Positions 3,945 to 61,026 of a stretch of 61,026 bases of DNA are shown in pieces. The stretch covers positions 1 to 61,026 of the forward strand of contig CAZAYL010000003.1 in assembly GCA_964489405.1 (NCBI GenBank), read 5' to 3'. The stretch is from an uncultured Lachnospiraceae bacterium. Lineage in GTDB: Bacteria; Bacillota; Clostridia; Christensenellales; UBA1242. The translations under genes and the position numbers were made by a program. Below the pieces are notes generated by a model. The model did no database searches. It saw only the letters and a program-made list of their open reading frames with translations, and was not told where the DNA came from. Each line of letters opens with the position of its first letter. Within the stretch, counting starts at the first letter, position 1.

Positions 3945-3963
3945 TTGATAATTCGAGGGTAAA

Positions 3964-21087: not shown

Positions 21088-21089
21088 CT

Positions 21090-28936: not shown

Positions 28937-29578
28937 ATGAATATTTTATTGATAGGAGCGCCAGGTAGTGGCAAGGGCACATTGTCCCAAAAACTTACTG
29001 AGAAATTTGGATTTCAACATCTTTCAACTGGCGACTTGTTTCGCGCAGAAATTGCTCGTGGTACAGAGCGCGGGAAGATCATCGACGAGGCAATAAGCAA
29101 GGGTTTTCTTGCGCCAAGCGATATCCTACTAGAAGTGATGAAAGACCAATTGTCGCAAGAACGCTATAAGGACAACGTTTTGCTTGATGGATTTGGTAAA
29201 ACACTTGAAGAAGCAATTGAACTTGACAATTTCTATAATATTGATAAAGTCATCTACTTAGACGTCGATTATGACAATTTGCTTGGTCGAATACTAAGAA
29301 GACGAATTTGTCCAGATTGTGGAAATGTTACAACAGTTGACATTTCAGGCGAAATATGTGGCAAATGTGGCTCAAAATTAATTATTAGAAGTGACGACAG
29401 TGAGGAAGTTTTTGCTAATAGATTTAAAGTCTTTACTGAGAAAACTCTCCCAATCGTTGATTATTTTGCTAATCAAGGCGTATTGACTAGAATTGATGCA
29501 AACGATACCATAGATGAAAATTTTGTTAAAATTTGCAAAGCAATTAATAGAGATAAAACCCAAGAAGTTGAGCGATAA
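28937..29578 (+). CDS. adk: Adenylate kinase paralogue (copy 2, Cys4 zinc-lid type)
   Basis: P-loop GAPGSGKGT, STGDLFRAE, lid RRRICPDC...CGKC, IRSDD. The canonical DGFPRT is replaced by DGFGKT. Confidence 0.85.
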   Translation: MNILLIGAPGSGKGTLSQKLTEKFGFQHLSTGDLFRAEIARGTERGKIIDEAISKGFLAPSDILLEVMKDQLSQERYKDNVLLDGFGKTLEEAIELDNFYNIDKVIYLDVDYDNLLGRILRRRICPDCGNVTTVDISGEICGKCGSKLIIRSDDSEEVFANRFKVFTEKTLPIVDYFANQGVLTRIDANDTIDENFVKICKAINRDKTQEVER

Positions 29579-43609: not shown

Positions 43610-44332
43610 TTAATTTTCACGCGAAAGAAATATATACAATACAAAGCGCAACATTTCAAGCAAAGCAACAACGAAAGATGCAACATATGTCAGCGCCGCT
43701 GCTTTCAAAACTTGACGTGCGCCATCAAGTTCGATTTCATTAAGGAATCCCCCATCTTCCAAGATTTGCATTGCACGCTTTGAAGCATTGAATTCAACGG
43801 GCAAGGTAATAAGGTTCAAAAGCAACGATAACCCATAGAAACAAACGCCCACCCCAATAAAAATTAAACCAATTGGGTAATTTGCCGACACAAATAACCC
43901 AAGAAGTAACCCTATGATAACCATTGGCCACAAAAGAGTGCTAGCAAGGTTTGTGATAGGGACAAGAATTTGCCTAAAACCTAAAAAGAAATAATGTTCT
44001 TTCTTTTGAATAGCGTGCCCCACTTCGTGCATAGCAACACCAAGAGAGGCAACAGATGAAGAGTCATACACATCTTCCGAAAGGGCAATGTACTTCTTTT
44101 TGGGATGATAGTGGTCAGTTAAATACCCCTTTTCTCTGCGCAATTCAATTTCTTGTAACCCCGCGCTATCCAAAACAGTACGTGCAAGTTGCGACGCAGT
44201 GATGCCGTTTGCACTTTGTATTTGACTATAAGTTTTGTATGTTCTAGAAACTTTTGCTTGTGCGTAAATGCCAAGCAAAATACCAGGGACAATTAAAATT
44301 CCTAAAGCGTAATACAATAAAATAAATGACAT
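43610..44332 (-). CDS. YugP-like membrane zinc metallopeptidase (PF04298-type)
   Basis: N-terminal TM plus AQAKVSRTYKTYS..., GYLTDHYHPKKKYIALSEDVY, HExxH in GVAMHEVGHAIQ, and C-terminal TM helices. Confidence 0.85.
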   Translation of the reverse strand: MSFILLYYALGILIVPGILLGIYAQAKVSRTYKTYSQIQSANGITASQLARTVLDSAGLQEIELRREKGYLTDHYHPKKKYIALSEDVYDSSSVASLGVAMHEVGHAIQKKEHYFFLGFRQILVPITNLASTLLWPMVIIGLLLGLFVSANYPIGLIFIGVGVCFYGLSLLLNLITLPVEFNASKRAMQILEDGGFLNEIELDGARQVLKAAALTYVASFVVALLEMLRFVLYIFLSREN

Positions 44333-44449
44333 AAATTCTCCTTATTTACTTTATGATTTTTTTAATATTTTATGATGCTATATTATAACATATTTTTTTA
44401 AAATTGTATTGTAATTTAACACATATTTTTATAATTTTTTGCGCTTACA

Positions 44450-45172
44450 TTATTTGCCAAAAATGTATCTAAAAACAATGTATGGGCCCTCAAAAAGCGA
44501 AGCAATATAAGTGAAGCCAGCCGAGCGCAACAACCTTTTAACTTGGCGTAGTTCTTTGCCTTTTATGCCAACGTGTTTTTTAAGAAACATTTTACCATTA
44601 CGCGACGCTCCGAATTCGAGAGGTATTAAGAATAATTTCATCAAAATCGTAATTGCAAGCGCGCCCAACCCCACGTAAATCATAATTTTGCCAATAATAT
44701 TGAGTTCGAAAGGAATAACCCAAATTATTATGCCAAGCAAAACAAGTGGAAGGAAAAGTCCCGAGAAAAATCTATTTAGTTTTTGTAAGAAATAGCAAAT
44801 TGCAAAAAAGATACTATTGCTATAGCGTTGTCGTGAATGTCCAAATTCGTGGCAAGCAATCGCTAGTGATGCAACGCTAGTCCCATAAAAAATTTCAGGT
44901 TTTAAAATAATTCGGTCATTTGCGTAATCATAGCAATCATCCACTTTTTCGCCCGCAAGGTAAAGTTTAGTGCGTTGCTTAAATTTGTCAATTCCAAATT
45001 CCAAAACTTGATACGCTTGCGCGTTTAGCGAACTCTCTACATTCATAAGTTCATCTTTGACTTTGTAAAATATTCGATGCGCCGTCCCCGCGATTATCAT
45101 TCCAATGAGAAAGACAACAATTACAAGCAAACTGATTATAAAAAGGGGATTTTCAATCAATTCTTCAAACAT
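44450..45172 (-). CDS. Divergent YugP-like membrane zinc metallopeptidase paralogue
   Basis: Same architecture as its neighbour: TM, soluble region, HExxH in IACHEFGHSRQ, TM helices, LEFGASR. I prefer the ATG at 45172 (GGAG SD) over the ORF-track start at 45211. Confidence 0.75.
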   Translation of the reverse strand: MFEELIENPLFIISLLVIVVFLIGMIIAGTAHRIFYKVKDELMNVESSLNAQAYQVLEFGIDKFKQRTKLYLAGEKVDDCYDYANDRIILKPEIFYGTSVASLAIACHEFGHSRQRYSNSIFFAICYFLQKLNRFFSGLFLPLVLLGIIIWVIPFELNIIGKIMIYVGLGALAITILMKLFLIPLEFGASRNGKMFLKKHVGIKGKELRQVKRLLRSAGFTYIASLFEGPYIVFRYIFGK

Positions 45173-45266
45173 TCTTACTCCAATTATTGTAATTATATCA
45201 AAAAAATGCAAAAATTACAAATGAATAATAACAAAAATATCAACATATAAATTTTATGAGGTTTAT

Positions 45267-46271
45267 ATGAAAAATATTTCAGTACGTGCACAGTTTGAAT
45301 GTATGGTGCAAAAAGACGGCGAAAACATCGGCATACTTGAGAATAATGCGCAAGAAATTCTTATCAAAACAAACAAAGATTTTATTTTGACTTTTTTCCC
45401 ACTCAATAATTTCGAGTCCTTGCCATATTCTTGTAAAGTTTTTGTGAATGGCACATCAATATCTACAAACACAGATAAAGGCATAATTATCAAAATGCCA
45501 CACAACTGCTATGACATCATTTTTTCTCCATATCAATTGAGATATATTGAGCCATTCATTGAACAATCTCAAACTTTAAATTCAACATCTACAAATGTTA
45601 CAGTCCAAATTGTCAAAGAATTTAAAGCGCAACAATGGATACAAACTTTGCAAATTTACGAAAAAAACAACAATGTTTTTTCTCATAAAATGTCAAGCAT
45701 AGTACAAAACTGTAAAATTAGTAGCGCGTATATAAATAATGAATTTTTCATCATTATTTCAGGGACCGTCGATGATTATGAATATGCATTTATCATTAGT
45801 GCAAACAATAAATACCAATCAAGCCTTGAATTATTGTGCCACAAAATTGAAATAAACGACAAAAACATCAAAACACTTACAAAGTGTTTCGACATCGCAA
45901 AACACGGCAAAGTCAGCGTATACGAAGTAGTTAATTCACAAATTACTAAAAGTGATGAATATATTGTAAATTTAAAAGAGGGGAATAAAGTCTTACCACA
46001 AGTTGTCCCATTTGTCTTTTTTGAAAGTTTGAAACTTGGCGATATCAAACTATGTAGAACCCATTTAACCGAAAGCTTAAATTCATCAATAGACGACATT
46101 CATCTCAAGGCATACTTTGGCAATTTTCAAGAAGCCCGCCCAAGTGCAAACTCACTCGATGCATATTCAGTTGTTTTAATCTATAAAGAAAAAGAATCAT
46201 ATTTTGGCAAACTCTGCAAAATTGAAATGAAAGGTGACAAAATTGACAATTTTGAATTGCTTGACAATTGA
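45267..46271 (+). CDS. Hypothetical cytoplasmic protein (orphan)
   Basis: 334-aa ORF with a GAGG SD 5 nt upstream. No TM or signal sequence and no motif I recognise. Confidence 0.6.
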   Translation: MKNISVRAQFECMVQKDGENIGILENNAQEILIKTNKDFILTFFPLNNFESLPYSCKVFVNGTSISTNTDKGIIIKMPHNCYDIIFSPYQLRYIEPFIEQSQTLNSTSTNVTVQIVKEFKAQQWIQTLQIYEKNNNVFSHKMSSIVQNCKISSAYINNEFFIIISGTVDDYEYAFIISANNKYQSSLELLCHKIEINDKNIKTLTKCFDIAKHGKVSVYEVVNSQITKSDEYIVNLKEGNKVLPQVVPFVFFESLKLGDIKLCRTHLTESLNSSIDDIHLKAYFGNFQEARPSANSLDAYSVVLIYKEKESYFGKLCKIEMKGDKIDNFELLDN

Positions 46272-46332
46272 AATTTGCGTAGTGTATATATATTCAAATT
46301 GTGTCAATAATAGCATTTAGAGGTAGAAGATA

Positions 46333-47445
46333 ATGACTATCAAAAAAATCCAAATGCAGAAAAGAATACAACAATTGTTTAATTATGTCAAACAAACAGA
46401 TCAAGCACATATACCACGCCTTGAAGCATTCAGCAAATTTGCATTAAAACACAATCTAAAATGCGAAACAGTCCGCAATCTATATTACAGCGCCGTCAAG
46501 CAATATAAAATGCAAGAAATATTCAATATTGAAAAGTGCAAACATTTTAATGCCAGCGAACTCAAAACGATTATGACACAACTTGTCAGCGAAATAAACC
46601 GCACAAAGTCAGTCCGTCAAGCGTGCTACAACCTAAGCAACGGCAACGCAAAATTAATGTTAAGATTGCAAAATAAATATCGTAGTATATCAAAAAATAC
46701 CCCCCAATATCTAATAGAATTAGGATTAAATTATAAAAATATCACTACTAAAAATACAACGCCCCCCAAAGTGAATAAATCATCACAAAAAACAAAAATA
46801 AACATTCAAAAATCGCTTGAAAATGTCAATAATTTTATTCTAAAAAATCAACAAACCACATCAAAAATAAGCGATATACCCGCAAAAAATGACAAGATAG
46901 TAGCAAATATTTGCAATATACCTATCAAAAATGAAAAAATGAATATTTTTTGCACAAATAAAAATAATTGTGCAAAAAATATAAAATCAAACAATAATTT
47001 TTATTCTCAAAATGTGGAAATTTGCGAAAATAATTTATCTCAAATGCCCCCAAATAAACCAGAAGCAAAAATTTTGAAAATGCCCTCAACTCCCAAATTA
47101 ACAGACACAGACATCAATAATTTGTTTATGGGACTTGTCAAAATGGTGAAGCGAAACGCTATTGAAAGCGCACCACAAAATTTGCGTGATGAATGCGCTC
47201 AAATAAGTTCTTCACTAAAAGAAACATTAGTGCAACTAAACATAAATACAAGAAGACTTGAAGTCGTCAAATGTGAAAATCAATCACTAAAACAAAAACT
47301 AAATGAGTCCCAAAAACTATTAAAACAAACGCGCAGTGAATATGCCCAACTTATCAACGAAATTGACAAAACAGGGCATATAGAAGAACTAAAAAATTTT
47401 TTGAAATTATATAAATCACATAAATTTGAAACAAATTTAAATTAA
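46333..47445 (+). CDS. Hypothetical protein with a weak Myb/RsfA-like N-terminal helix-turn-helix resemblance and a C-terminal coiled coil
   Basis: 370-aa ORF with an AGAGG SD. RLEAFSKFALKHNLKCETVRNLYYSAVKQY loosely parallels B. subtilis RsfA [31 protein letters not shown]. The middle is N/K-rich and low in complexity. The C-terminal heptad-like segment is LEVVKCENQSLKQKLNESQKLLKQTRSEYAQLINEI. Confidence 0.55.
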   Translation: MTIKKIQMQKRIQQLFNYVKQTDQAHIPRLEAFSKFALKHNLKCETVRNLYYSAVKQYKMQEIFNIEKCKHFNASELKTIMTQLVSEINRTKSVRQACYNLSNGNAKLMLRLQNKYRSISKNTPQYLIELGLNYKNITTKNTTPPKVNKSSQKTKINIQKSLENVNNFILKNQQTTSKISDIPAKNDKIVANICNIPIKNEKMNIFCTNKNNCAKNIKSNNNFYSQNVEICENNLSQMPPNKPEAKILKMPSTPKLTDTDINNLFMGLVKMVKRNAIESAPQNLRDECAQISSSLKETLVQLNINTRRLEVVKCENQSLKQKLNESQKLLKQTRSEYAQLINEIDKTGHIEELKNFLKLYKSHKFETNLN

Positions 47446-47601
47446 CTTTCTAAAATTTAAATATATTTCTTATTATTGCGTTAATATATTTGACTTTTGG
47501 TGCCGATTTTTGATAAACTTAAAAAAATATATAAAAATATAATTTTTATATTGTTTTGTTTACTAATTTTATAATTGCATAAAATACAAAAGAGGTTCAG
47601 T

Positions 47602-50600
47602 ATGAGTAAATTAGAATCAAGAGAAAAGATTGAAAAAAGAGTTAAGGCTCGCGAAATGTGGCTGAGAATATTGACTATTTTCGCACTGCTTGTTATGGTC
47701 ACAGGTTTGGCACTTTTCATATATTTCCAAACCTCATATCAAACACGCATCCAGCTAGACACGCCAGCAAATGTTCGCGTCGAGAAGCTAGGCGACAGCG
47801 TGTACCTAAAATTCGACAAAGTCAAGAATGCGACTGCCTATCGTTATAGCATTGACAACCATATTATCCAAGTCGGTGCCGATGACCTTAATGTCGATAT
47901 CACAGCGCTTGTCGAATCTCCAAAGAAATATAAAATTTCGGTGCAAGCTATCGCTGAAAGCGGTTTTAAAAATAGCGAAATCTCCTATGCGGAAGATTTT
48001 GTCGTTACAAAGACCCTCGCGCAACCAATAGCGGATATCGATAAATATGATTCGAAACTCGTGTGGGTCAACGTCGACGGCGCGGATATGTATGAAGTTA
48101 CAATTATCGTAAACTCCGACATCACCGAACCAACAACCGCGCTTGTAAGTAAGAACGAATTTGACATAAGCGATATCGTAGACGACTATACAAAAAAATA
48201 TTCATTCTCAGTCAAAGCTCTTGCCGAAAATGAATATATCAATCAATCTGCATCCTCAAATGCAGTCGAACACAGTCTAAAAGGTAGACTGACTGAACCA
48301 ACCTCACTATCATACGACGAAAATACCCACAAACTCACTTGGGACGCCGTCGAGAATGCAAGCACATACACAGTTGTTTTGTCGCACGGCAATCTCGAAC
48401 CTCAAAAATTCATTTGCTCATCAAATTACATATATTTTAATTCTCAAGACGTGCAAACTATAGGCGAATATGAAGTTTATGTTTACGCCAACAACGTGCA
48501 ATCGCAAGGACTTGACGAAGAAGTTACTTGGTTCCTTGCAAGTGAAAAATCTGAAATCATCTCATTCTCCGTCTATGAGAAACTCGCAACTCCAAACGGG
48601 CTCCGCTACCAAATGAATGGCGAACTCGTATGGTTTAGTTGGGATAGCGTTCCGAACGCATACAGTTATACAATCGAACTCGTCAATGCCGAATCAGTTG
48701 CATTCTACCAAAAGAATACAGTCGCTAACGAAATCAATTTACGTCGCGACCTCGAGGGCGCAATCGGAGGAGATTTTAGAATAAGAGTCAAAGCAAATGG
48801 TTATGGATATTATTACACAAGCGACTTTAGCGCAATTATGGAACTTAACGTCCTTGACAAATTCGCACCCGTCCAAAATATCGAAGTTTTGGAAAATGGC
48901 AAATATTTGACATTCACAGCGCCAGCAAAAAGTGCCGTCAGCAATGTCAAATTTGCACCAAAAAATGGCTACAAAGTTGTGATATTAGATGAAAATGACA
49001 ATGAAATATATAATCAAACAATCTATAGCACACTTTTGGATACATCCACAATTTTCACACAGCCAATTGCATACAAAATCTCAATCAATACCAATGCATA
49101 CGGCTATTTCCGCGCATCAGAAATAACAACAGCGCAGTATTGCCACCAAGAAGTTTTGAAAACGCCAACAAATGTTACGCTTTACAAACAGACATCCACC
49201 GAAACAAACGGAACTGGCGAAATTGTCGAAATAAACACAATGAAATTGTCATTTACAGGGGACATCAACGCAACCGACTACACTTTATGGTTTGAGGGCG
49301 TCGAATACCAAAATATTTTAACAAATAAAACCTATTCAGGTTTTGCAACAAAAACAATTGACGATGTAAACAAAGTCGCGACACTTGAAATTGACATTTC
49401 AAGTTTTTCCGCAAGCATTTTGGGTTATGACCCATTGACAATCGCAAAGAAATACTCAGCGAAGGTAAAATGTATCGGCAACGTCGGCGACAGCGAGATG
49501 CTTGCAGGGTACAAAGATAGTAAATTTAGCCCAGTTACAATGTTTGAGAACAAAATCAAGTTGCAAGCACCTCAAGTACTACTAGTCGAAAATGTCGATG
49601 AAGAAAAAGTTATACTTTATTTCTCGCAAATTGACAATGCAACAAGCTACAATATTAGAATTACAAGTGCAATTTCTGGCGTAACAAGTGTTATGACATC
49701 GCGTTTGACGACCTGCAATATCCATTCAATAATTTCCGCAGGTAATAATAGCATTACGCTAACCGCCGTCGGGTCAGGTTACTATGAAAATTCCGACCCT
49801 AGCGAAACGATAGAATACAACTACGAGCCAATCTTGAAAGCGCCAAACGACGTCGAAATTACCGAAGAAACGCTCGAAGGTAGTGTGCATTACTATGCAA
49901 CATTTACAACAACGCGCTTTGCTGAATATTATTACGTCGACATTCGAAAAACGCACGAATTGCAAACAATCAACGGCACAAAGCAAGCAGTCGAATTAAC
50001 GGGCGCAATTTTTGAAACACTAAGCACAAAATTTAGCAAAGGAACACTAAAAACAAATTGCGACATTACTGAATACCTTACAAACAACGGCTTTGGCAAA
50101 TATGAAGTGAAAGTTCGCGCCGTTTTTGAGCAACCAGAAGTGCCAGAAACACCATTTATATACTCAAAAAAAGATTCAAATATCGCCACATACACGTATT
50201 TTGACCAACAACCAGCGCCAACCAATCTTGCGTTTGACAAAACAACAAAAATTTTGACATTCACAGGCACCGAAACAGCGCAAAAAGGATACATAATCCG
50301 CGTAAAACTCGAACAATCTGACGGAAGTTTTATCACAAATGAAATTTCAACGCTTGAAACAACCGTCGACCTATCAGAAACAATCGCCATTCTCGGCGGT
50401 GTCGGCAAATTCACAATCAGCGCAATGACGCGCAAAGTCGACGAATTATTCCTTGGCAATTCTGCTTGGGCAACATTAGAGCCAGTGGAAATTCGCATCA
50501 AACTCGCCGACCCAACTAATTTCCAATATAGCGATAGTTTACAAGAAGTGTCGTGGACAAGTGATTTGCGAATGGAATATGAGTACCTAAAATTGACGTT

Positions 50601-53600
50601 TAGGAACAAATCAATTTCATACACACTTCGCGAAATTACAGACGATTCATTCAATTTGAGCTTTGTGAGCTTGCGCGAGTACATCAAGCAGTATGGCGAC
50701 GGCTTCTATGAATTTACAGTGCAAAGTTTCTCGCACAAAAATATGGTCGACGATTCTGAAATTGTTACATATACATACACAAAATACGTCCAACTCGATT
50801 CGCCAGTGCTCATCTCCGTAATGGATAGAAATAATTACGTTGAAGCCAAATTCGCGACAAGCGAAAACGCGAAAACATACGCAATCATCGCGAAACTCCC
50901 AACCGAAGAAGTTTGGACAAAGATAAAAACAAACATCGAAGACAATGGGGAAGATGAAATCACAGTCGACATCAAAGCGGAACTCAGTAAATTGTACGGC
51001 GCAAACAAATACGACATCGCCGTCATCGCCGAAACATACGACTATTTCCAAGAAAGTCAACCGAGCAACAGCTTGCCATTTGAATTGTGGCTCAAGTTTT
51101 CACCGCCCGCAAATCTAACAGCCGAATATGATGAGGAGCAAGGCAAGTACTACGCCCTGTGGGACGCCGTTTCATACGCCGAAACATACTCATTTACAGT
51201 GAACGAACGCGTAATTGCTAGCGACATCACAAATACAAAATTCGACCTAACAAGCGTTATCGGCGACGAATCAACGGGCAAATTCTTGCTTGGCGTCCGC
51301 GTCAACGCAACAGGCTACTATTATAATAGTCTATACACAACATACGACTTTTATCTATCAAGCGCACTATCCGCGCCAACAATCACGTATGACGACAAAA
51401 CGCACAAGCTTGCGATATCTAAGCAGGGTGGCGAAATAGGATACGCTCTATACATCGACTATTTTGCGACCGAAAGCGCACTCTCAAGCAAAACACCAAC
51501 AAATCATCTTGAATACGAAAATATCCAAGCCACAATCATCAATTTAACCAACACAATGGAAATCACAGGGCTCGGCATCTACGTAATCAAAGTCAAAGCG
51601 CTCGGCGACGGTGTCTATTGGCAAAATTCAGATTGGTCAGAAGAATTGAAAGCATATTATACTGAACCACTCGCGCCACTAACCGCCCTTAATGTCGACA
51701 AGCGTCAAAACGGCGGGCAAATTGAAAATTACATCGTCATCACAAAACCAACCGACGTAATATATGAAAATGCGCTCATTCAATATGTGTTCTATGAAAT
51801 AGACAATATCGACAGCGACATACAATCAGAGCAAACCCCAGCACTTACAATCGTAGACAACCGCACCGAATTTAAAATCGAAAGGCTATCCAGCGCCAAA
51901 TACTACAAAGTCGTCGCAACGATTCTCGGCGTGTATGACAATTTCCAAACATATTCAAACAACTTGACAAGCACCGAATTAAATACCGCAATCAGCGCTC
52001 TCGCTTATTACGTAAATTCGGAAGAAAAATCAGTCAATTTTTCGACATTCGGAAATCAACTTTCCGCCCCAATTATTCAAAGCATCGCAATGACCGCGGA
52101 AAAGCAAATAACTATCACATTTGCCAAAGTTCTCAATGCCGAAACATACACCTTAATTGTTGCAAGACAAAGTAAAAACGCAGTTATATATGAAAAAGTC
52201 ATCAACGCAGAAAATACCGACGCCACAATTGGCACCGACGCAATTACCGTAACACTCAGCGCAACAACCGCAGATTTTGCCGATGAATACGACATCTATA
52301 ACATCAAACTTTGCGCAAATGACGTACTTGTTGACCCAACAAGCGAAGAAATTGCTTACGCAAAATCGCCAAACACCGAAATCGATTTTGCATACACAAC
52401 CACACTTTCTACGCCAACAGTTTCATTTTACGAGTTAAATGACGGCACATTGAGAATAGAAGTTTCAAACATCGAGTTTGCGACAGGTTATGAACTCGAG
52501 TTGAAAGTCAATGGTTTTGCGCAAATATATTCGCTTACAGATACATATATCGACTTCTCTAGCGCACAATATGGTGCATACATCGCGCGCGCAAAAGCAC
52601 TCGGCGATGAATATCACAAAAATAGCGACTGGAGCGCAAGTGAAGAATACACGTACAGAAATCAACTTGCTAGCGTCGAGAAAGTCGAAATCATTTCAAA
52701 TGGGGACGTCGCCACTCTCGCAACGCGCATTTATGCGCAGTGGAACGAAGTCAACGGCGCAAAAATGTACGGCGTTAAAGTCGATAAGGACGGCACCAAA
52801 ATTGGCGAATACGAAACCAACAAAACCTACTATGACCTTATTAACATATTCAAAGCAAATGGTTATGGCACTTACACCGTTTGGGCGAAAACAAACAGCG
52901 ATGGCGCATATATCATAGGCGAAAGCAAATACACAAAGTATGACACATATCAATACAAAGGGCAGTTTGAAGTGCCATTCAGTTTCGAAATCACCTATGA
53001 CTATAATACATCCGTATATCCAACAAAATTGACCTACCTTACAAAATTCAGCGCAGTCAGTGGCGCCAAGAAGTACATCATAACAATCTATGCAAATGAT
53101 GAAGAAAAAACCAAAGTCAAAGAATTTGAGTTGTATGCAAGCGCCCTTTCTTTGGAAAACGACATCTACAATGCCGACATCTCTGAATACCTAAAGGACA
53201 TCGACGGCGGAGTCTACAACGCTACAATTAAAGTCGCCGAAACAAGCGCAAACCTAGCAAGCGAAGAGAGTGAAAGTATAAGTTTCACAAACTATCATCT
53301 CTACAAAGACCCATCCCTAACCGCAAAACAATTCGGCGAAAGACCATTTATCCGCGTGAATTTCATTGAAATATCCAACGCCAATTACTATTCATTGTAT
53401 ATCAATGATACCTTGTATGAAGTAAATGGGGAGAAATTCCAATTTATAAGCGGGTATATCGATATTTCCGCACAATACCTAAATATTGGGCAAGAAAACA
53501 CCTTTATTCTCGAAATAATTGAAGAGCCAAGCGCATATTATCTCAACACCTACTATCGCGTCAAAGTGTCCAATTTCACATTCAAGCTTTCAAGTGTCGA

Positions 53601-56600
53601 AAATATCGCCATTGAGCAAACAAGCAAAACGCAAATCGCAGACGGCGAAAATAACTACATCTGGTTATCATTCGACCAAGTCGACTATGCCACAGATTAT
53701 GAACTTTATATTGACAACGAAAAGGTTGAAACATTACAAGCAGGGCAAGAAAAGTACGACATTTCCGCACTTTTTGCAAATAGAATGCCAAAGGACAACT
53801 ACAAAATTGAGCTTATTGCCATAGATAGTGCCGACAAACTCACAAGAAGTGATTCAAAAATATACACATTCGACTACACCTTGCAATTCTCCGCCCCAAC
53901 CAACCTAACAATGTCAGACGACACGCAAATTTCCGCAACGTGGGCAGAACCACAAAACTTGCAATCATTCCAAACTCTCGCAACCGAAAACAGCATAGCA
54001 TTTGGCGAGCAAAAATACAAAATAATTGTCTACTATATTCTCAATAGCGCGGAAAACGAAGTCAAGCAAATTACCGACATCAGTTCAAATTCATACGACT
54101 TGACAAGTATCGTGAACGAACCAGGCACTTGGCGTATCGACGTCTACGCTAGCGCAAACGGCGCATTCGACGAGTCAATCACGTGTGCAAGTACAACATA
54201 CAATTATGTCTTGACGCTAGACGCAGTCCAAAATGTAAAAATTAGTCAAGACAATGGGACATACTCCTTGAGTTTCGACAAAGTCAATGAATATAATTAT
54301 ACCTACGCAAAAGATTATTACCTAAATAATCTCTACTACAAGATATATGTTAATGGTGGTTTAGTATATACCCCAACACACACAGGGCTTCCAAGCAATC
54401 CAGTTATTAACATCACAAATAAATTGTGGGGTGGCGACAACATCATCTATGTCATTACAGCAAATGACAAAGTCGCACACTTTATCGAAAGCGAGCAATC
54501 TAATAGCGCAGAATGCACATATTCCACGCAATTTACCACGCTATTCCATGCCGAAGGCATCAACGACGAGAAAAACAACAAGCAATTGTTTAGATTCGAC
54601 AGCTTTAACGTCAACGGAATGACTAGCGATGAAATTCTAGATTTGACATATACGCTCTCAATCTATAACATCGACGGCGTACTCATAAGCACTAAAGACG
54701 ACTACAAAGCGGAGCGTTACAACTCATCAAAGCTCCAAATTGACATCACAAGCGTCATCAATGGCCAGCCAGGTTCATACCAAATCATCGCGAAAATCAA
54801 CGCGTACCAAAAATCGTTCCTACTCGGCGAAAAAACAATCAACTTTGCGATGAATGAAAGTGACACTGTTACCATTTCCTATGACCACAAATTGCGCGCC
54901 GACACGCCAAAACTCAGCTTGCTCGTCATCGACATCGACGGAAATGAAAGAGATGCAAACATAGGACTCGAAATGCAAGAGATGTGGCTCACATTCGACG
55001 TCAAATTTTCCGACGCATTCCTTGCCCGCGCAAGCGAACTTGAATACACCCTACTCATCAACGACAGTGAATACTATTTGACTTTGCCATACAGCACCGA
55101 CAAAATCGGGCAAACAGTAACCGCAAGTGGGTCAATGGTTACCAATTCGGAAATAGTCAAAGTTTCAACGCGCGTAAAAATTACCGAACGCACCGAGTCT
55201 AGTGAGCGCAAAATTTCGCTCTCGTTCTCAATCATCGAACTTATAGAGAAAGACGGCTTCAATATCTACAAGTCAGGCGTCATCAACATCAAAGCAAAGT
55301 CTGCCGAGCAAGGGTATTATCTCGAGTCAACCTATCAAATTAATTCCTTGAGATATGACTATTACCTAAGGTACAAGACACCAACAGGGCTTGAATATGT
55401 TACACGCCAAGACGGCGCACACTACATCAAATGGGACGTGCCAACCCACGCACACGTTAGCAACTACTATGACATCATAGACACCTACAATGTTACCATT
55501 GAGTCTATGGGCGTCATAGACGAATCAGGAAGCGCATCCAACCCGCATAATACATTAGGGGGCAAACATTCGTGCAATTTTACCCGCGACGAAATAATTG
55601 TCGAAAATGGATATCTATATTACAATATCGAGAACCTTTTGTTCGCAGGGCACAACACAATCAGTCTAAAATGCAATGAGTCTAAAGCCAATTATTACCT
55701 AGAGTCCTTTGCAACCACGATTGAAAATAATGAATATTATAAGAAAATCAAAACCCCAGAATTTACAGTCGATGACCTTGACACTAACACGAAAGGCAAC
55801 GACAACGCAGTCAAAGGGGTCAAAATTAATATTATAAATTACGACAATGACGGCGACTATGATAAGGAACTAAATAAAGTAATCAATTACAATTCAAGCG
55901 CGCTCTATCGCGTCGAAATTACAAGCCAATCTGAATGTAAATCTACTACTAAGAACCCAAGCCAAAGCGCCTATATGGATTACTCAGTTATTTTCAAAGT
56001 AAACAAAAGTGGTACATTTGAAATAATTAATGGCGCAGACTATGTGTTAAGTTACAAGATAAAATTTAGCACAATCAACAATTGTGGCACGCTCCAAATT
56101 GAGTGGCAATTTGCGGAACCAGGGCGTTACACATACTCAATAACCGCACTCGGCGATGAAGCAAACTACACGCTCGATAGCGACACGCAAACACTCGCGC
56201 ACGACACCACATACAGCGCACCAACCTTAACCGCAACACTCTCAATTTATCATTACGACAAGAATAGCAATGAAGTGTTGCGTACAGGGGAGAACACAAC
56301 CACAACAAGAATGAGTAAAATTGTGCTCGAATGGCAAACAGATTTAAGTTATTTCTATAATGCGGAATATGAACTCACAATCGAAGGTTCATACAATAGT
56401 GGAGAAAAAAATTCGTTTGTGGTCAAAATTACTAATCAAACGTCAATTACATTTAGCAAAGATGAAAATGGTGCTATTTTTTACGAAATTATGTATAGAC
56501 CCGCAAATTACACATTTACGCTAAAAAGTTTAGCAAAAACAAGTGCAGTGTCAGCGGGGGCTTCAGATGAAATGACATATTACTATATAAGTACAGGGAA

Positions 56601-59600
56601 AAAAATGTCATACAACTACTATGTCCAAATCGATAAGCCACAAGAATTATCTATCGACGAAACCTACCCCAATCAATACATCAAAGTCAAAATTCCGCAA
56701 TATCTCATTGATGCAGGAATTCAAGATAAAACTGCCCAAATTACTGCATCTTATAAAATTGAGCAACTTGAGTATAATGTAGGAGAAACAGCGTGTGCTT
56801 CTAATTCAGATTCTAACACAGTCAAACTCGGCGCAGAAGCAAACTACTATTATATCAATGTTACAGATAAGCTGTATCCGGGTAAGAACAAAATCACACT
56901 TTGGTTCAACGAAATCTCCAAGCAATACTTCACGCAGAGCGATTCGCTTGAAGTCCAATGTGACTACATTGCCACGCTCGCGCAAATAGACACAGTTACT
57001 TACGAAAACCTTTATGACACTAGTGGGTATATCAAAGGTTTTGCACTTAGTTTTAATAATGTCAACTACAATACGCACTTTGCCTATAGACTGGACATTG
57101 AAGGAACACAGTGGAATCAAAATTTTCGAAAGAGTTTACTTTTGAAATCAACTAGCACCTATGATAAAACATTATGCTATACAATATCATACGGAGATGA
57201 CAGCATTGCAGAACAAGCAAAAGTAAGCGCTAGTGGTTTACGTACTCGCAAAGGCACAACTAATGGGTATACATATAGTCCCTACAGCTACAGCCCTTGT
57301 GTGAAAAAAAGTGGCAATTATGTGATGACATTCCTTGTCCTAATCGACGGCGGATTGCCAGATGAATACTCAATCAAAATCACATCTATCGGCGAGCTCA
57401 AAGTCAATAGCAATAGCGAAGTGAATCCACTGCTTAGTGATTTGAATAGTTTAAAAAAGGATGGCACTACACTCGCAACAAGGAGTTCAGAACCTAAAGA
57501 ATTGTTTTACATTATGAAAGGCATACTCAAGCAAGCGAACTTGTCAATCGGTGTTAAGAACAATGGGGAATTCAAAGAAGCAACTTCGAACTCAACTTCA
57601 AATGCTGTTGCATATGTGTATAATACTGATAACCCCGGCAATTCATTCAGTTGCTTATCCTATTCAACAAATCAAAATTCAAAGACATTTTCAGGAAAAT
57701 ACAATAGCAATGTATATTTAAAAGTTACCTTACCTAAAAACGACTACCAAGCAACAAAATATGGTTTATACTGGACTTTGGGAAACACATCCGATTCTGG
57801 GTATATGACTGTTTTAAATATAGATGAAACTAACGGGAATTATTATGAAAGTGGATATTCTGAAGTTGAAATTGTCACTGAGGGCGAGTCAGTGGTAGCA
57901 TACATTGACCTTGTTGAAATTGGAGCACTTAGTTATAGGGGCGCTTATACATTCTGGATAACTGCAATAAACGAAAGTACAGTTGGTTCTAATGAGTATG
58001 TCTATGAAAATCCCAAGGTTGATTCAATTACGCGCTTTGCAAATCGTTTTGATAAAGTCAATACACCTACACTTGGAACAAAAAGCTCATTTGATTTTGT
58101 TGAAGAGCAATATATAGAAATTACAAACTTTGGTAGATATTCACTCGACAAATATAATACTAGGGAATATAAAATCAAAGTAACAATTACTGAAAAGGAT
58201 GAAAATGGAAAGACTTTAGAATATTCCTTTGAATTTTCTAACAATTCAATCAATAGTAATTATTCTGCAGAAGAACTATATCCATATTATCAGTATAGTT
58301 CCCTTTATATTCCGTATGCCTATTTGGAAGAGAAATTTGAAGAAAAAGGATTTGTTTTTGGTAATATTTATGTAAAAATATACATAGACGTAACCGAGTC
58401 GGATTACTTGTGGGATTCAGATGATTCTGACCCAGCAATAATACAATACAAAGGTTACATCGAATTTCCAAACTTTGCAAAAAACGAAGCCGAATTCAAT
58501 GGTGGCACATACGAAAATCCGGGAAGTGGCACAGCATATACAGAATATACCTTTGGAAATGATAGTGAAATTCCAACTAAGATTACAGCGAAATATCTCA
58601 TCAATGCAAACAAGAAATTTTTAAATAACTCAAAATACAAACTTAGACTAAAGGTTTGGAACTCTACAAATTACAAAACACTTGATTTAGAATTAGGAAA
58701 CAACAAATCTTTGGAGGTATTTAACATTAAAAAAGAAGGAACTAAGGAAGGAATTTTACATGATATATTGGAAACGAACTTCACATACGGCGAACACACA
58801 CTCGGTATGCAAATTGAAGGACTGTATTATTCTGATGACAAGGAAGAAGTTCCCGATACCGCATATTATTATGATAAAGGCACATATTGGATAAATTTTG
58901 TAGTCAAGTATAAGTTGCGCGCCCCAACAGTTGAATTTGAATTAGATAATAACAATATAAAATTGAATAGTTTGAATATAAAATATTACTTTAAAGAATT
59001 GAATGAAAATGAAATTGATACAATTTATAAGGATAAGGATACTTATGTTAAGTATAATATTAAAAGTGATTCTTGGTCTAGCGAGGGAAGTTCAAATATA
59101 AATATTGATAAAGATGGTGTACAAAAAATTATATTAGATAATGAAGATAATAAAGATAATGAAAATACGGGCAAATTCGAAGCAAAGGTTTACTTATCGT
59201 GTAGTAATAACTACATACTTGACTCGGATGAAGTCTCTTGTTCCCAAATAGTCAAGAGCCTACCGGGTGTATCGTCCGCATATATTGACATTGAGAAAAA
59301 AATTGATACAAATGGCACCACATATAATAACGTAAAACTCACTATTAAGGTCCAAGAAGTCAAAACATTTAATTCAAATGCTACCGTAACGTTTAAAGAT
59401 GGCGAGTTGAGAGTAGAGTACTTTAAATTTGAGCTTTATCTTATTAATGTCGCAAATGCAAACACAGGAACTATCAGTGAAGAGTATACGGGTAGCATTA
59501 GTCGCATACAAGCCGATTTAAATCGTGATTTTAATTCATTAATGTCCAATACTTCCAAAAACGCTTTTGCGCCAGGGAGATATTATTTCAAGATAAGAAT

Positions 59601-60873
59601 TTCTGAAGATACAAAAATAGGTGATGAGCAATATAGAGCGAGTGATTGGTACTATGTCGGGAAGGAAAACTGTTTTGCGGGAAGTGGAAGTAAATATAAT
59701 GCGAATGCACGTCAAATAAAAAATACCTTGAAAGGAGATACGAATGCATCTACTTGCAAATACACAGTCGCTTACACAAATTGGAACTCTTCAAGTTTGA
59801 CCATTGTGCGCGACAATTCCACATACAAAGGTCTTGTTACTGGAGTGAGATTTAATACCATAAGGGACGGCGGTGGTGTATCTGTACTTACATTTTTGAC
59901 ATATCAAGCAATTGGCAAACAAAGTAACAACAACGACGGTGTAAGTGACAACAACAACGGTGTATATATAAATTCCGACCCAAGTAATCCAAGTTTTCGA
60001 TATTTTTCATATAGAATGAAGCTATCGTTTAAACAAACAGGGAATGAAAATGTAGAAGAACAATACTATTCCTCAACATATAGCGGTTTTACTGCTACAG
60101 GAAGTACCGAGAAATGGAACTTGTATTTGTATGTTAGGATAGATGAAGGCGCATTGAAAAAATATTTCAGCGTTTGGCAAAGTTTATATGAAGCATATAA
60201 AATAGATAAAACAAAATCAGATAGTATGCTAAACTATATAGAGATGTCGGCAACAAGTACTTCAAGTGTTAAATATAATGAGAAAGACTGGGTTAGTTAC
60301 GCAAAATTAAGTACTAACAATACTACAGTAGAAAACGTACCAAAACGTCAACGTCTATCTCCAGTGACTAAGCTTGAGGCTTCCACTAGTGATGTAAGGG
60401 GAGATTGGCCTTTTGAGGCGATAGTAATTGGATATGATTATATTGCTAGCTGGGACAATTATTCAAGTCGATTATCATCTTATATTGAAGGCATAGAAGT
60501 AAAATACTATTTTTACTACAACAGCTGGCTTCAGGCGAATTTGAAAACCCCAACAGATAGGGATAGATACAATAGGTGGGTTACTCCTAATCATTGCATT
60601 ATAAACAAAAGAACAGGAGAGCCAGATATTAGTAAAACATCTTATTCTGTATACTTAGGAAACTTGGATGATAGACTAGATGGTTCACTTGCTAGAGTAG
60701 ATGAATCACGAATATGTGTAATAGTACAAGTCAAAAGTAAAAGCAATGAATATGATGATTCAGCAATTGTAATGAACAACAACTGGGGTGCCAACCCATT
60801 TGAGAAGTGGCCTAGTAATCCGAATTACCCACTCCCAGAATATGAAAAAAGTTGTGCAAAATATTCGTGGTAA
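47602..60873 (+). CDS. Giant (~4423 aa) N-terminally anchored surface protein: at least 25 FN3/Ig-like ~100-aa modules plus a distinct C-terminal region
   Basis: Uninterrupted 13.3-kb ORF. I prefer the ATG at 47602 (AGAGG SD at 47591-95) over the TTG at 47575. Signal anchor KAREMWLRILTIFALLVMVTGLALFIYF. The modules repeatedly start L-x-x-P-x-N/S-[LV] and contain W..V..A..Y-x-[VI] (LTEPTSLSYDENTHKLTWDAVENASTYTVVL; LATPNGLRYQMNGELVWFSWDSVPNAYSYTIEL; LQAPQVLLVEN...FSQIDNATSYNIRI; LSTPTVSFYEL...IEFATGYELEL and others). There is no C-terminal anchor motif. Confidence 0.9.
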   Translation: MSKLESREKIEKRVKAREMWLRILTIFALLVMVTGLALFIYFQTSYQTRIQLDTPANVRVEKLGDSVYLKFDKVKNATAYRYSIDNHIIQVGADDLNVDITALVESPKKYKISVQAIAESGFKNSEISYAEDFVVTKTLAQPIADIDKYDSKLVWVNVDGADMYEVTIIVNSDITEPTTALVSKNEFDISDIVDDYTKKYSFSVKALAENEYINQSASSNAVEHSLKGRLTEPTSLSYDENTHKLTWDAVENASTYTVVLSHGNLEPQKFICSSNYIYFNSQDVQTIGEYEVYVYANNVQSQGLDEEVTWFLASEKSEIISFSVYEKLATPNGLRYQMNGELVWFSWDSVPNAYSYTIELVNAESVAFYQKNTVANEINLRRDLEGAIGGDFRIRVKANGYGYYYTSDFSAIMELNVLDKFAPVQNIEVLENGKYLTFTAPAKSAVSNVKFAPKNGYKVVILDENDNEIYNQTIYSTLLDTSTIFTQPIAYKISINTNAYGYFRASEITTAQYCHQEVLKTPTNVTLYKQTSTETNGTGEIVEINTMKLSFTGDINATDYTLWFEGVEYQNILTNKTYSGFATKTIDDVNKVATLEIDISSFSASILGYDPLTIAKKYSAKVKCIGNVGDSEMLAGYKDSKFSPVTMFENKIKLQAPQVLLVENVDEEKVILYFSQIDNATSYNIRITSAISGVTSVMTSRLTTCNIHSIISAGNNSITLTAVGSGYYENSDPSETIEYNYEPILKAPNDVEITEETLEGSVHYYATFTTTRFAEYYYVDIRKTHELQTINGTKQAVELTGAIFETLSTKFSKGTLKTNCDITEYLTNNGFGKYEVKVRAVFEQPEVPETPFIYSKKDSNIATYTYFDQQPAPTNLAFDKTTKILTFTGTETAQKGYIIRVKLEQSDGSFITNEISTLETTVDLSETIAILGGVGKFTISAMTRKVDELFLGNSAWATLEPVEIRIKLADPTNFQYSDSLQEVSWTSDLRMEYEYLKLTFRNKSISYTLREITDDSFNLSFVSLREYIKQYGDGFYEFTVQSFSHKNMVDDSEIVTYTYTKYVQLDSPVLISVMDRNNYVEAKFATSENAKTYAIIAKLPTEEVWTKIKTNIEDNGEDEITVDIKAELSKLYGANKYDIAVIAETYDYFQESQPSNSLPFELWLKFSPPANLTAEYDEEQGKYYALWDAVSYAETYSFTVNERVIASDITNTKFDLTSVIGDESTGKFLLGVRVNATGYYYNSLYTTYDFYLSSALSAPTITYDDKTHKLAISKQGGEIGYALYIDYFATESALSSKTPTNHLEYENIQATIINLTNTMEITGLGIYVIKVKALGDGVYWQNSDWSEELKAYYTEPLAPLTALNVDKRQNGGQIENYIVITKPTDVIYENALIQYVFYEIDNIDSDIQSEQTPALTIVDNRTEFKIERLSSAKYYKVVATILGVYDNFQTYSNNLTSTELNTAISALAYYVNSEEKSVNFSTFGNQLSAPIIQSIAMTAEKQITITFAKVLNAETYTLIVARQSKNAVIYEKVINAENTDATIGTDAITVTLSATTADFADEYDIYNIKLCANDVLVDPTSEEIAYAKSPNTEIDFAYTTTLSTPTVSFYELNDGTLRIEVSNIEFATGYELELKVNGFAQIYSLTDTYIDFSSAQYGAYIARAKALGDEYHKNSDWSASEEYTYRNQLASVEKVEIISNGDVATLATRIYAQWNEVNGAKMYGVKVDKDGTKIGEYETNKTYYDLINIFKANGYGTYTVWAKTNSDGAYIIGESKYTKYDTYQYKGQFEVPFSFEITYDYNTSVYPTKLTYLTKFSAVSGAKKYIITIYANDEEKTKVKEFELYASALSLENDIYNADISEYLKDIDGGVYNATIKVAETSANLASEESESISFTNYHLYKDPSLTAKQFGERPFIRVNFIEISNANYYSLYINDTLYEVNGEKFQFISGYIDISAQYLNIGQENTFILEIIEEPSAYYLNTYYRVKVSNFTFKLSSVENIAIEQTSKTQIADGENNYIWLSFDQVDYATDYELYIDNEKVETLQAGQEKYDISALFANRMPKDNYKIELIAIDSADKLTRSDSKIYTFDYTLQFSAPTNLTMSDDTQISATWAEPQNLQSFQTLATENSIAFGEQKYKIIVYYILNSAENEVKQITDISSNSYDLTSIVNEPGTWRIDVYASANGAFDESITCASTTYNYVLTLDAVQNVKISQDNGTYSLSFDKVNEYNYTYAKDYYLNNLYYKIYVNGGLVYTPTHTGLPSNPVINITNKLWGGDNIIYVITANDKVAHFIESEQSNSAECTYSTQFTTLFHAEGINDEKNNKQLFRFDSFNVNGMTSDEILDLTYTLSIYNIDGVLISTKDDYKAERYNSSKLQIDITSVINGQPGSYQIIAKINAYQKSFLLGEKTINFAMNESDTVTISYDHKLRADTPKLSLLVIDIDGNERDANIGLEMQEMWLTFDVKFSDAFLARASELEYTLLINDSEYYLTLPYSTDKIGQTVTASGSMVTNSEIVKVSTRVKITERTESSERKISLSFSIIELIEKDGFNIYKSGVINIKAKSAEQGYYLESTYQINSLRYDYYLRYKTPTGLEYVTRQDGAHYIKWDVPTHAHVSNYYDIIDTYNVTIESMGVIDESGSASNPHNTLGGKHSCNFTRDEIIVENGYLYYNIENLLFAGHNTISLKCNESKANYYLESFATTIENNEYYKKIKTPEFTVDDLDTNTKGNDNAVKGVKINIINYDNDGDYDKELNKVINYNSSALYRVEITSQSECKSTTKNPSQSAYMDYSVIFKVNKSGTFEIINGADYVLSYKIKFSTINNCGTLQIEWQFAEPGRYTYSITALGDEANYTLDSDTQTLAHDTTYSAPTLTATLSIYHYDKNSNEVLRTGENTTTTRMSKIVLEWQTDLSYFYNAEYELTIEGSYNSGEKNSFVVKITNQTSITFSKDENGAIFYEIMYRPANYTFTLKSLAKTSAVSAGASDEMTYYYISTGKKMSYNYYVQIDKPQELSIDETYPNQYIKVKIPQYLIDAGIQDKTAQITASYKIEQLEYNVGETACASNSDSNTVKLGAEANYYYINVTDKLYPGKNKITLWFNEISKQYFTQSDSLEVQCDYIATLAQIDTVTYENLYDTSGYIKGFALSFNNVNYNTHFAYRLDIEGTQWNQNFRKSLLLKSTSTYDKTLCYTISYGDDSIAEQAKVSASGLRTRKGTTNGYTYSPYSYSPCVKKSGNYVMTFLVLIDGGLPDEYSIKITSIGELKVNSNSEVNPLLSDLNSLKKDGTTLATRSSEPKELFYIMKGILKQANLSIGVKNNGEFKEATSNSTSNAVAYVYNTDNPGNSFSCLSYSTNQNSKTFSGKYNSNVYLKVTLPKNDYQATKYGLYWTLGNTSDSGYMTVLNIDETNGNYYESGYSEVEIVTEGESVVAYIDLVEIGALSYRGAYTFWITAINESTVGSNEYVYENPKVDSITRFANRFDKVNTPTLGTKSSFDFVEEQYIEITNFGRYSLDKYNTREYKIKVTITEKDENGKTLEYSFEFSNNSINSNYSAEELYPYYQYSSLYIPYAYLEEKFEEKGFVFGNIYVKIYIDVTESDYLWDSDDSDPAIIQYKGYIEFPNFAKNEAEFNGGTYENPGSGTAYTEYTFGNDSEIPTKITAKYLINANKKFLNNSKYKLRLKVWNSTNYKTLDLELGNNKSLEVFNIKKEGTKEGILHDILETNFTYGEHTLGMQIEGLYYSDDKEEVPDTAYYYDKGTYWINFVVKYKLRAPTVEFELDNNNIKLNSLNIKYYFKELNENEIDTIYKDKDTYVKYNIKSDSWSSEGSSNINIDKDGVQKIILDNEDNKDNENTGKFEAKVYLSCSNNYILDSDEVSCSQIVKSLPGVSSAYIDIEKKIDTNGTTYNNVKLTIKVQEVKTFNSNATVTFKDGELRVEYFKFELYLINVANANTGTISEEYTGSISRIQADLNRDFNSLMSNTSKNAFAPGRYYFKIRISEDTKIGDEQYRASDWYYVGKENCFAGSGSKYNANARQIKNTLKGDTNASTCKYTVAYTNWNSSSLTIVRDNSTYKGLVTGVRFNTIRDGGGVSVLTFLTYQAIGKQSNNNDGVSDNNNGVYINSDPSNPSFRYFSYRMKLSFKQTGNENVEEQYYSSTYSGFTATGSTEKWNLYLYVRIDEGALKKYFSVWQSLYEAYKIDKTKSDSMLNYIEMSATSTSSVKYNEKDWVSYAKLSTNNTTVENVPKRQRLSPVTKLEASTSDVRGDWPFEAIVIGYDYIASWDNYSSRLSSYIEGIEVKYYFYYNSWLQANLKTPTDRDRYNRWVTPNHCIINKRTGEPDISKTSYSVYLGNLDDRLDGSLARVDESRICVIVQVKSKSNEYDDSAIVMNNNWGANPFEKWPSNPNYPLPEYEKSCAKYSW

Positions 60874-60905
60874 GCCACTCACTATAAAAATGGTAAGCCA
60901 CTCAC
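60868..60905. repeat. 15-nt perfect direct repeat spanning the stop codon of the giant gene
   Basis: TGGTAAGCCACTCAC occurs at 60868-60882 (including the final Trp codon and TAA) and again at 60891-60905, separated by TATAAAAA. Confidence 0.9.
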
Positions 60906-61026
60906 GCCCATCGTCATTGCGAGCGAAGCGTCGGTGCCAGACGGCACAGGTGCAGGTGTGTGTTGGTGTGAGTATGTTGTTGTGAGATGACAACCAAACC
61001 TGCAGTCAAGGCGAGCCTTGCCCGGA

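Follow-up and report, generated by a model that had tools for sequence, protein, structure and literature searches.

A giant protein of divergent FN3-like modules from an uncultured gut Clostridia lineage, read as a probable membrane-anchored surface fibril with a variable tip

A 61,026-nucleotide stretch from an uncultured Lachnospiraceae bacterium (contig CAZAYL010000003.1, positions 1 to 61,026; hereafter the window) contains a 13-kb gene coding for a 4423-residue product, which we refer to as the giant gene and the giant protein. The protein consists of a single N-terminal membrane helix followed by a long chain of fibronectin type III (FN3)-like modules, for which our best count is 25 secure, about 10 degenerate and one terminal, and its sequence becomes increasingly variable with distance from the helix. 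We interpret it as a type II (N-in, C-out) membrane-anchored surface fibril that acts as a tether or adhesin with a variable tip, and assign this interpretation a probability of roughly 0.6. The protein would be surface-exposed with an extended rod geometry, and adhesion or tethering would be its most likely function.

The giant gene is a single open reading frame of 4423 codons that runs on the + strand from an ATG at 47602 to a stop at 60873, with no internal stop and a Shine-Dalgarno sequence upstream, as a preliminary description of this DNA had stated. The open frame around it spans 47575..60873, and 47602 is its first ATG. The remaining five frames contain 190-392 stops across the same span, and the chance of a frame of this length remaining open, computed from base composition, is ~1e-131. 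A weak sigma-70-like promoter can be proposed in the 156-nt gap between the giant gene and the preceding gene, orf370; such sites are no commoner in the region than in shuffled sequence, and this one is a candidate only. The features at the start of the gene are as follows.

47490 to 47519, + strand: weak sigma-70-like promoter candidate (TTGACT, 18 nt, TG-TAAACT), agreeing with the consensus at 9 of 12 positions
47590 to 47595, + strand: Shine-Dalgarno sequence AAGAGG, 6 nt upstream of the start codon, evident in the sequence itself
47602 to 60873, + strand: coding sequence of the giant protein, 4423 codons plus stop, identified from the open frame, the identical protein in two other assemblies, its orthologues, and its substitution pattern

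The encoded protein is strongly acidic, with 583 Asp+Glu vs 401 Lys+Arg, and has a high content of Thr, Ser, Tyr, and Asn. Scanned over positions 44000-58000, the + strand has a negative GC skew across the giant gene (-0.09 to -0.14) and a positive skew across the upstream genes on the same strand, a pattern that probably derives from the Thr/Ser/Asn/Tyr-rich, Gly-poor composition of the protein rather than from a replication landmark.

Homologues were collected by a genome scan of GTDB species representatives and by exhaustive profile searching across 1.84 billion cluster representatives. An identical 4423-aa protein is present in two independent ENA assemblies, on contigs of 67 kb and 25 kb, and the GTDB scan yielded intact syntenic orthologues (4331, 4378, and 4363 aa) in three metagenome-assembled genomes (MAGs) from uncultured Clostridia, of which one derives from a Hadza gut. 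The order SerRS, ArgRS, U32 peptidase, two Zn-peptidases, orf334, orf370, giant gene is common to the window and the three MAG loci. The profile search added colinear, essentially full-length homologues with 50% (P0002), 41% (P0003), and 34% (P0008) identity. A scan of JGI metagenomes returned distant matches only (19-34% identity), a word-indexed homologue search with a 232-aa query returned only a 254-aa fragment, those with the N-terminal 1200 aa and the C-terminal 1123 aa gave no homologue within a limit of 8000 candidates each, and a scan of IMG/VR returned no relatives. The giant protein is no orphan, but all of its full-length colinear homologues, which come from public MAGs and assemblies, are uncharacterised.

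The ratio of nonsynonymous to synonymous substitution rates (dN/dS, by the Nei-Gojobori method) is 0.12-0.18 over the whole gene, which places it under purifying selection, and these observations bear on the proposal that the gene is an assembly artefact, a pseudogene, or cargo of a prophage or other mobile element. In favor of that proposal, the sources are short-read metagenome assemblies, a GC-rich repeat lies directly past the stop with two assemblies differing downstream of it, and phage tail-tip FN3 proteins occur among the structural matches described below. Against it stand the identical protein in two assemblies, four or more independent intact colinear homologues, the low dN/dS, the absence of internal DNA repeats able to cause collapse or chimeras, an upstream synteny composed of core housekeeping genes, and the lack of any IMG/VR relative or PADLOC match. 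Mis-assembly is effectively excluded, in agreement with the view of the preliminary description, and a prophage or mobile origin is ruled out by the core-chromosome context and the lack of an IMG/VR relative; taken as a whole, we consider this proposal extremely improbable.

To define the modules, a hidden Markov model (HMM) was seeded with nine motif-bearing segments and iterated on the giant protein, giving 22 confident hits; a second run that included the three orthologues under an inclusion threshold, with tiling of the gaps, gave 25 in-register modules. These form a contiguous proximal array in which profile-profile probabilities are 94-99% as far as residue 2719.

47755 to 55758, + strand: 25 contiguous FN3-like modules (residues 52-2719) of 87-158 aa each with short linkers, from iterated HMMs and profile-profile comparison
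48592 to 48876, + strand: module 4 (residues 331-425), the module modelled with AlphaFold2 and compared with Foldseek

The modules share a relaxed consensus of a P-x-N-[LV] start, a core of [LF]-x-[WF]-x-x-V-x-x-A-x-x-Y, a D-[ILV]-[ST] element, G-x-Y-x-[IV]-x-[VA]-x-A, and a terminal S-x-x-S. The Tyr of the V-x-x-A-x-x-Y motif is conserved in more than 90% of the 25, and many modules bear insertions of 20-60 aa. The patterns given in the preliminary description were right in spirit, but in their literal form are too strict and match 5 module starts and 2 cores only. Its count of at least 25 modules through nt ~57100 stands as a number, but the secure modules stop at about nt 55760, and of the roughly 28 present by nt 57100 three are weak.

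Assignment of the modules to the FN3 fold draws on profile searches and predicted structure. A profile of the 25 modules matches the PDB sequences 7jgu (E=4.1e-5) and 7jgt (2e-4), with weaker matches to 3mpc (a Clostridium thermocellum Fn3-like protein), the PTPRF FN3 domain, and IFNGR1, and a weak match to a GH31 enzyme. The AlphaFold2 model of module 4, a prediction for which the 25 paralogous modules served as alignment, is a seven-strand sandwich with a predicted local distance difference test score (pLDDT) of 90.3, which supplies the structure prediction of a representative module that had been proposed as a check. In a Foldseek comparison of this model with the PDB, nearly all of the best 50 matches are FN3 domains or cytokine-receptor domains of FN3 type (TM-score 0.55-0.73, probability 1.00, E ~1e-3), and some of the matches are phage tail-tip proteins with FN3 domains. 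The exhaustive profile search recovered 10,067 proteins at E<=1e-3, including textbook FN3 giants of planctomycete-like bacteria and of animals.

Pfam models give a different picture. The fn3 model (PF00041) has no match in the whole giant protein at E<=1 and detects 0 of the 25 modules at E<=10, and a single module matches Fn3_Dep-1_2nd, at E=0.012. Neither the whole protein nor its C-terminal pieces matches any Pfam domain, and the 34%-identical homologue is likewise without a Pfam match. From the sequence profiles and the predicted structure we place the modules in the FN3 superfamily, where they would form a divergent subfamily that the present Pfam models miss. The FN3-like beta-sandwich character recognized in the preliminary description therefore holds, but its description of the signature as 'classic' was overstated, as PF00041 detects none of the modules. 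The same module type is found outside the family of giant proteins: P0044 (1360 aa) and P0069 (1092 aa) contain 7-9 copies followed by a C-terminal transglutaminase-core domain, and reuse of the module in front of such heads fits a role as stalk or spacer. The signal sequence of P0044 looks lipoprotein-like by eye.

The modules are strongly diverged from each other, being 13-28% identical to module 4 in the in-register alignment, and the giant gene has no direct DNA repeats of at least 30 nt and only two trivial microsatellite-like tandem arrays. In the absence of repeats at the DNA level the array is neither a recent amplification nor prone to assembly collapse. When the 41%- and 34%-identical homologues were compared module by module, all 25 matched their positional counterpart best, with scores 2-6x above any paralogue, indicating an ancient array that existed before these lineages arose and bears no trace of homogenisation. 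Recent tandem amplification and assembly collapse, already discounted in the preliminary description, are both ruled out by the repeat-free DNA together with the positional orthology of the modules. One relative of 5548 aa (P0010) carries a duplicated block of ~1000 residues, or ~10 modules (residues ~3061-4084 vs ~1850-2950), from which it follows that the length of proteins in this family shifts by duplication of large blocks and not by slippage of single modules.

The membrane anchor lies at the extreme N-terminus.

47602 to 47667, + strand: cytoplasmic N-terminal tail (residues 1-22), Lys/Arg-rich as in the positive-inside rule, kept across the family alignment
47668 to 47724, + strand: sole transmembrane signal-anchor helix (residues 23-41), Kyte-Doolittle peak 2.57

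In the hydropathy scan residues 23-41 stand out clearly, the runner-up segment scoring 1.19 and no other exceeding 1.2, and the segment is hydrophobic in all six aligned family members; the preliminary description had likewise recorded one N-terminal signal-anchor helix. The features that point to type II topology are the 19-residue hydrophobic helix and the Lys/Arg-rich residues 1-22, both conserved in the family, together with a signal-peptidase site judged absent by eye only; the helix is presumably uncleaved. This Sec-type anchor is the sole targeting feature found. Sequence inspection and the hydropathy scan revealed neither an LPXTG-like motif near the C-terminus nor a C-terminal hydrophobic stretch, and Pfam searches with the whole protein and its C-terminal pieces revealed no SLH, CWB2, LysM, choline-binding, SH3b, or other wall-binding domain, which bears out the earlier statement that a sortase signal and a wall-binding C-terminus are missing. 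No lipobox ([LVI][ASTVI][GAS]C) is present, the first Cys being residue 272, Pfam finds no RTX/HemolysinCabind or Big family, and type I secretion genes are not among the neighbours, which are housekeeping genes. The giant protein thus lacks the defining features of LPXTG sortase substrates, of wall-binding-domain proteins, of lipoproteins, and of RTX adhesins secreted by type I systems.

Conservation declines steeply from the anchor to the tip. Identity to the three MAG orthologues drops from ~78% over residues 1-400 to ~50% near residue 3000 and to 24-36% past residue 3400, and dN climbs more than ten-fold along the gene, from 0.04 to >0.5. In the last ~200 codons the proportion of nonsynonymous differences (pN) is 0.40-0.48 even among orthologues that are ~80% identical overall. 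In the same MAG genomes the housekeeping proteins that flank the giant gene retain 83-97% identity. The giant gene thus evolves fast, and more so farther from the anchor.

The distal region, beyond residue 2719, can be divided into three segments.

55759 to 59658, + strand: distal stalk (residues 2720-4019), ~10 larger, degenerate beta-sandwich modules recognized by the F-G strand motif only, from motif recurrence and weak profile matches
59659 to 60366, + strand: distal segment (residues 4020-4255) in which Cys-x-Y-x-V-x-Y-x-x-W and K-G motifs are conserved, AlphaFold2 pLDDT 22-45
60367 to 60870, + strand: terminal module and tail (residues 4256-4423) with an RQRL-x-P opening and an S-x-x-x-EYDDS end, from the family alignment; predicted beta-rich, pLDDT ~40-67

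Past residue 2719 profile-profile comparison with hhalign recognizes no more than the F-G strand portion of the module, with probabilities of 3-43% and matches near residues 2865, 3012, 3128, 3266, 3459, 3620, 3740, 3881, and 3999, a spacing of ~120-150 aa that continues to ~4000. An end-of-module motif, [YFW]xxxS[DE]xS, recurs at 3602, 3871, 4011, and 4122. AlphaFold2 modelling of residues 3626-4423 with five sequences in the alignment (four distant homologues added) gave a mean pLDDT of 52, and the usable portion of the model, residues ~3675-4025, folds as three beta domains with pLDDT 60-89. Foldseek matches to this low-confidence distal model are tandem-FN3 ectodomains (gp130, fibronectin FN10-12, Tie2, and neogenin) with E values down to 1e-7. 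Residues 4020-4255 are alignable among the homologues and indel-rich, and have no match in Pfam or, with a profile of the C-terminal alignment, in the PDB. The last ~165 residues, the most variable part of the protein, look like one further module with large insertions.

This distal segment is where an enzymatic reading would have to place its active domain: the FN3-like modules would be linkers in a carbohydrate-active or enzyme-presenting scaffold, as they are in glycoside hydrolases and cellulosomal proteins, and residues 4020-4255 would hold a catalytic or carbohydrate-binding domain that escapes recognition. Bacterial FN3 modules are often linkers in polysaccharide-degrading enzymes, the module profile reaches 3mpc and weakly a GH31 enzyme, shorter relatives with this module type carry the transglutaminase-core domain, and the segment itself gave no confident model. 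However, Pfam and PDB profile searches detect no catalytic or carbohydrate-binding module family in the giant protein or its homologues, neither dockerin nor cohesin was found, and the poor conservation and frequent indels of residues 4020-4255 are unlike those of an active site domain. We consider such a scaffold very unlikely.

For the fibril, we propose that the Sec machinery inserts helix 23-41 in the membrane and exports the other ~4380 residues, and that the exported chain would fold as a bead-on-a-string of about 35-37 FN3-like beta-sandwich modules with very short linkers. An FN3 domain in fibronectin or titin contributes ~3.5 nm, and ~35 modules would therefore give a rod ~100-130 nm long that could cross the wall and project far past it. 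The membrane-proximal modules would be a conserved stalk or spacer, and the distal third, chiefly the last ~1000 residues, would be the exposed, fast-evolving end that contacts host mucus or glycans, other cells, or particles. Since a rod of this length would suffice to pass through a Gram-positive wall, it would have no need of a sortase signal or a wall-binding module. The wall-reduced or epibiont lifestyle suggested in the preliminary description is not required by the data on the giant protein and finds no support in the window, whose ordinary core-chromosome genes carry no information on the cell wall.

Several observations weigh against this interpretation. Over the 906 residues from 2720 to 3625 the modules are assigned from weak periodic motif matches only, and no ligand-binding head is recognised, residues 4020-4255 having neither a confident model nor a Pfam or PDB match. 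In addition, dS is saturated, so that distal dN/dS values are uncertain and are never clearly >1 at the resolution used, and the divergence of the tip could reflect relaxed constraint rather than diversifying selection.

The same variability is compatible with a non-adhesive coat, in which long acidic fibrils form a dense brush that acts as a spacer or as a shield against phage, host enzymes, antibodies, or predators and has no specific ligand, the variable tip reflecting escape from recognition and not ligand switching. The ectodomain appears to be all modules with no distinct head, its composition is strongly acidic and rich in Thr, Ser, Tyr, and Asn, and a tip that is hypervariable and indel-rich even among close relatives is expected of a targeted surface rather than of a binder of a conserved ligand. 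On the other hand, most giant surface proteins of beta-sandwich type studied to date are adhesins, and the tip motifs RQRL, EYDDS, and C-x-Y-x-V-x-Y-x-x-W persist, which argues for a retained function there. We regard the coat as unlikely, yet a possibility of some substance, and retain the tether or adhesin with a variable tip as the preferred interpretation.

The gene immediately upstream, orf370, is the neighbour most consistently associated with the giant gene.

46333 to 47445, + strand: orf370, a 370-aa cytoplasmic protein of no known family, preceding the giant gene in all lineages examined

It precedes the giant gene in six of six contexts, namely the window, the MAG loci L001-L003, L007 (the locus of the 41%-identical homologue), and L006 (that of the 34%-identical homologue), and homologues lie at 7600-8556 in L006, ~113-496 in L007, and 8720-9820 in L001. 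In L006 the remaining neighbours differ and orf370 is still found upstream; this linkage, kept even where other neighbours differ, hints that orf370 may be a functional partner of the giant gene, possibly a regulator. Two blocks of orf370 are conserved, a helical domain at the N-terminus (residues 11-130) and a region resembling a coiled coil at the C-terminus (residues 243-361), and orf370 is better conserved than the giant gene, with 44% vs 34% identity to the L006 copies. No match to orf370 was found in Pfam, NCBIfam, the PDB, or PADLOC. A reading of orf370 as an RsfA/Myb-like regulator has no support from HMM or PDB searches, and orf334, considered as a second conserved partner, was not found near the distant homologues. 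A stronger proposal, that the giant protein and orf370 constitute a dedicated lineage-specific surface-fibril system of an uncultured gut Clostridia clade, with a ~100-nm stalk of FN3 modules that Pfam does not see and a hypervariable tip, residues 4020-4255 included, that is a new ligand-binding fold under diversifying selection, seems to us rather doubtful; if it were true, the tip would set strain-level specificity for host or partner, and possibly mediate cell-to-cell attachment.

Overall the window is core chromosome, with the S10-spc-alpha ribosomal protein cluster, SecY, two adenylate kinases, Map, RpoA, DeoC, Tex, SerRS, and ArgRS; PADLOC gave no match and Rfam nothing useful. A dispersed intergenic repeat with the core CGTCATTGCGAGCGAAGCGTCG, GC-rich (~60% vs 37% for the genome), begins a few bases past the stop of the giant gene. 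It occurs at 60880-61026 in the window, at 23280-23700 in L004, and at 20870-21880 and 24851-24872 in L005, being present once at the end of the window, which stops inside it, in up to 5 copies in L005, and absent from L001-L003. The genes downstream of the repeat differ between two assemblies, and it may break assemblies here or mark a rearrangement point.

The window contains a second giant gene (3964-13191, + strand), which together with the first occupies 37% of its length, (13272+9228)/61026, as previously described. Its 3075-aa product has an N-terminal hydrophobic segment (residues 6-24) and no LPXTG motif, and is built of modules unlike those of the FN3-like giant, with Listeria-Bacteroides (Flg_new) repeats near residues 2569-2643; a partial reading frame at 30-1250 (+ strand) has the same type of repeat. 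Elsewhere in the window, two tandem adenylate kinase genes (28311-28925 and 28937-29578, + strand) lie between secY and map, both scoring above the curated cut-off of TIGR01351, the ribosomal protein S5 gene (25632-26294, + strand) encodes an N-terminal extension of ~60 residues, and L17 (33618-34127, + strand) has an apparent insertion or extension, its model matching from residue 82 on.

The genes of giant surface proteins belong to the most poorly annotated in gut metagenomes and are often broken or discarded by assemblers and by word-based search tools, and word-indexed searches with the giant protein yielded at most the 254-aa fragment. We provide here a verified 13-kb gene that is intact across relatives down to 34% identity, together with its module map, its ancient fixed array, and its stalk-to-tip gradient. 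The protein reveals no new mechanism. The alignment of 25 modules could seed a new FN3-subfamily model with which to annotate the giant protein and its relatives, and the tip region and the linked orf370 are targets for learning how this uncultured lineage of human-gut Clostridia interacts with what surrounds it.

Comparison with known systems begins with the FN3 superfamily itself (the PF00041 clan, with 7jgu/7jgt and 3mpc). Like its members, the giant-protein modules are ~90-100 aa long, are predicted to form a seven-strand sandwich, and have a conserved Pro at the module start, an aromatic W/F in strand B, a Tyr in strand C that hardly varies, and a G-x-Y-x-V-x-A F strand. They differ in escaping detection by Pfam fn3 and its kin, in their 20-60 aa insertions, and in the reduction of the distal modules to the F-G motif only. 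Both single modules and the tandem arrangement have their best structural matches in titin, myomesin, fibronectin, and cytokine-receptor ectodomains, and as in titin the modules are individually diverged and positionally conserved; the likeness to eukaryotic FN3/Ig chains, at 8-21% identity, is one of fold and architecture only and does not imply functional equivalence.

The overall layout is that of the large adhesins of Gram-negative bacteria, SiiE of Salmonella, MpIBP of Marinomonas, and LapA of Pseudomonas, which have a cell-held end, a rod of tens of beta-sandwich domains, and a functional or variable far C-terminal end, and the giant protein shares this arrangement of anchor, extender, and tip. 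Those adhesins leave the cell by type I secretion, carry a C-terminal signal and RTX repeats, stay in the outer membrane, and are built of BIg modules, whereas the giant protein, encoded in a Clostridia genome, has an N-terminal Sec-type signal anchor, FN3-like modules, and no RTX or type I secretion feature detected by Pfam. Their repeats are often near-identical, in contrast to the diverged and positionally fixed modules described here.

Elongated extracellular proteins of 3000-10,000 aa are also known in Firmicutes, including Ebh of Staphylococcus aureus, SasG/Aap, the serine-rich repeat (SRR) adhesins, and Giant1-5 of Apilactobacillus kunkeei, with a presumed role in adhesion or aggregation, and the giant protein resembles them in this respect. 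The building blocks of the Gram-positive giants are FIVAR-GA, G5-E, and SRR units, and anchoring is by LPXTG or a C-terminal transmembrane helix. No sequence relationship of the giant protein to Ebh, SasG/Aap, the SRR adhesins, or the A. kunkeei Giants was detected. Giant1-5 make up several per cent of the small A. kunkeei genome, and Giant1-4 have an N-terminal beta-solenoid (PMC12863079). The giant protein also resembles the adhesion-type members of a set described by West-Roberts et al., giant proteins from metagenomes that are poorly annotated and mostly extracellular and whose domains required structure prediction; Clostridia examples in that set were read as adhesion proteins and include Listeria-Bacteroides repeats (10.1101/2023.11.21.568195), as does the second giant gene of the window. 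Their giants range from >10,000 to 85,000 aa and have many transmembrane helices with SecA-like or dockerin domains, or, in Oscillospiraceae, RCC1 repeats (10.1101/2023.11.21.568195), whereas the protein described here has 4423 aa, one transmembrane helix, and FN3-like modules throughout. It is no new kind of system, and takes its place as an uncharacterised addition to the familiar class of giant bacterial surface fibrils and adhesins.

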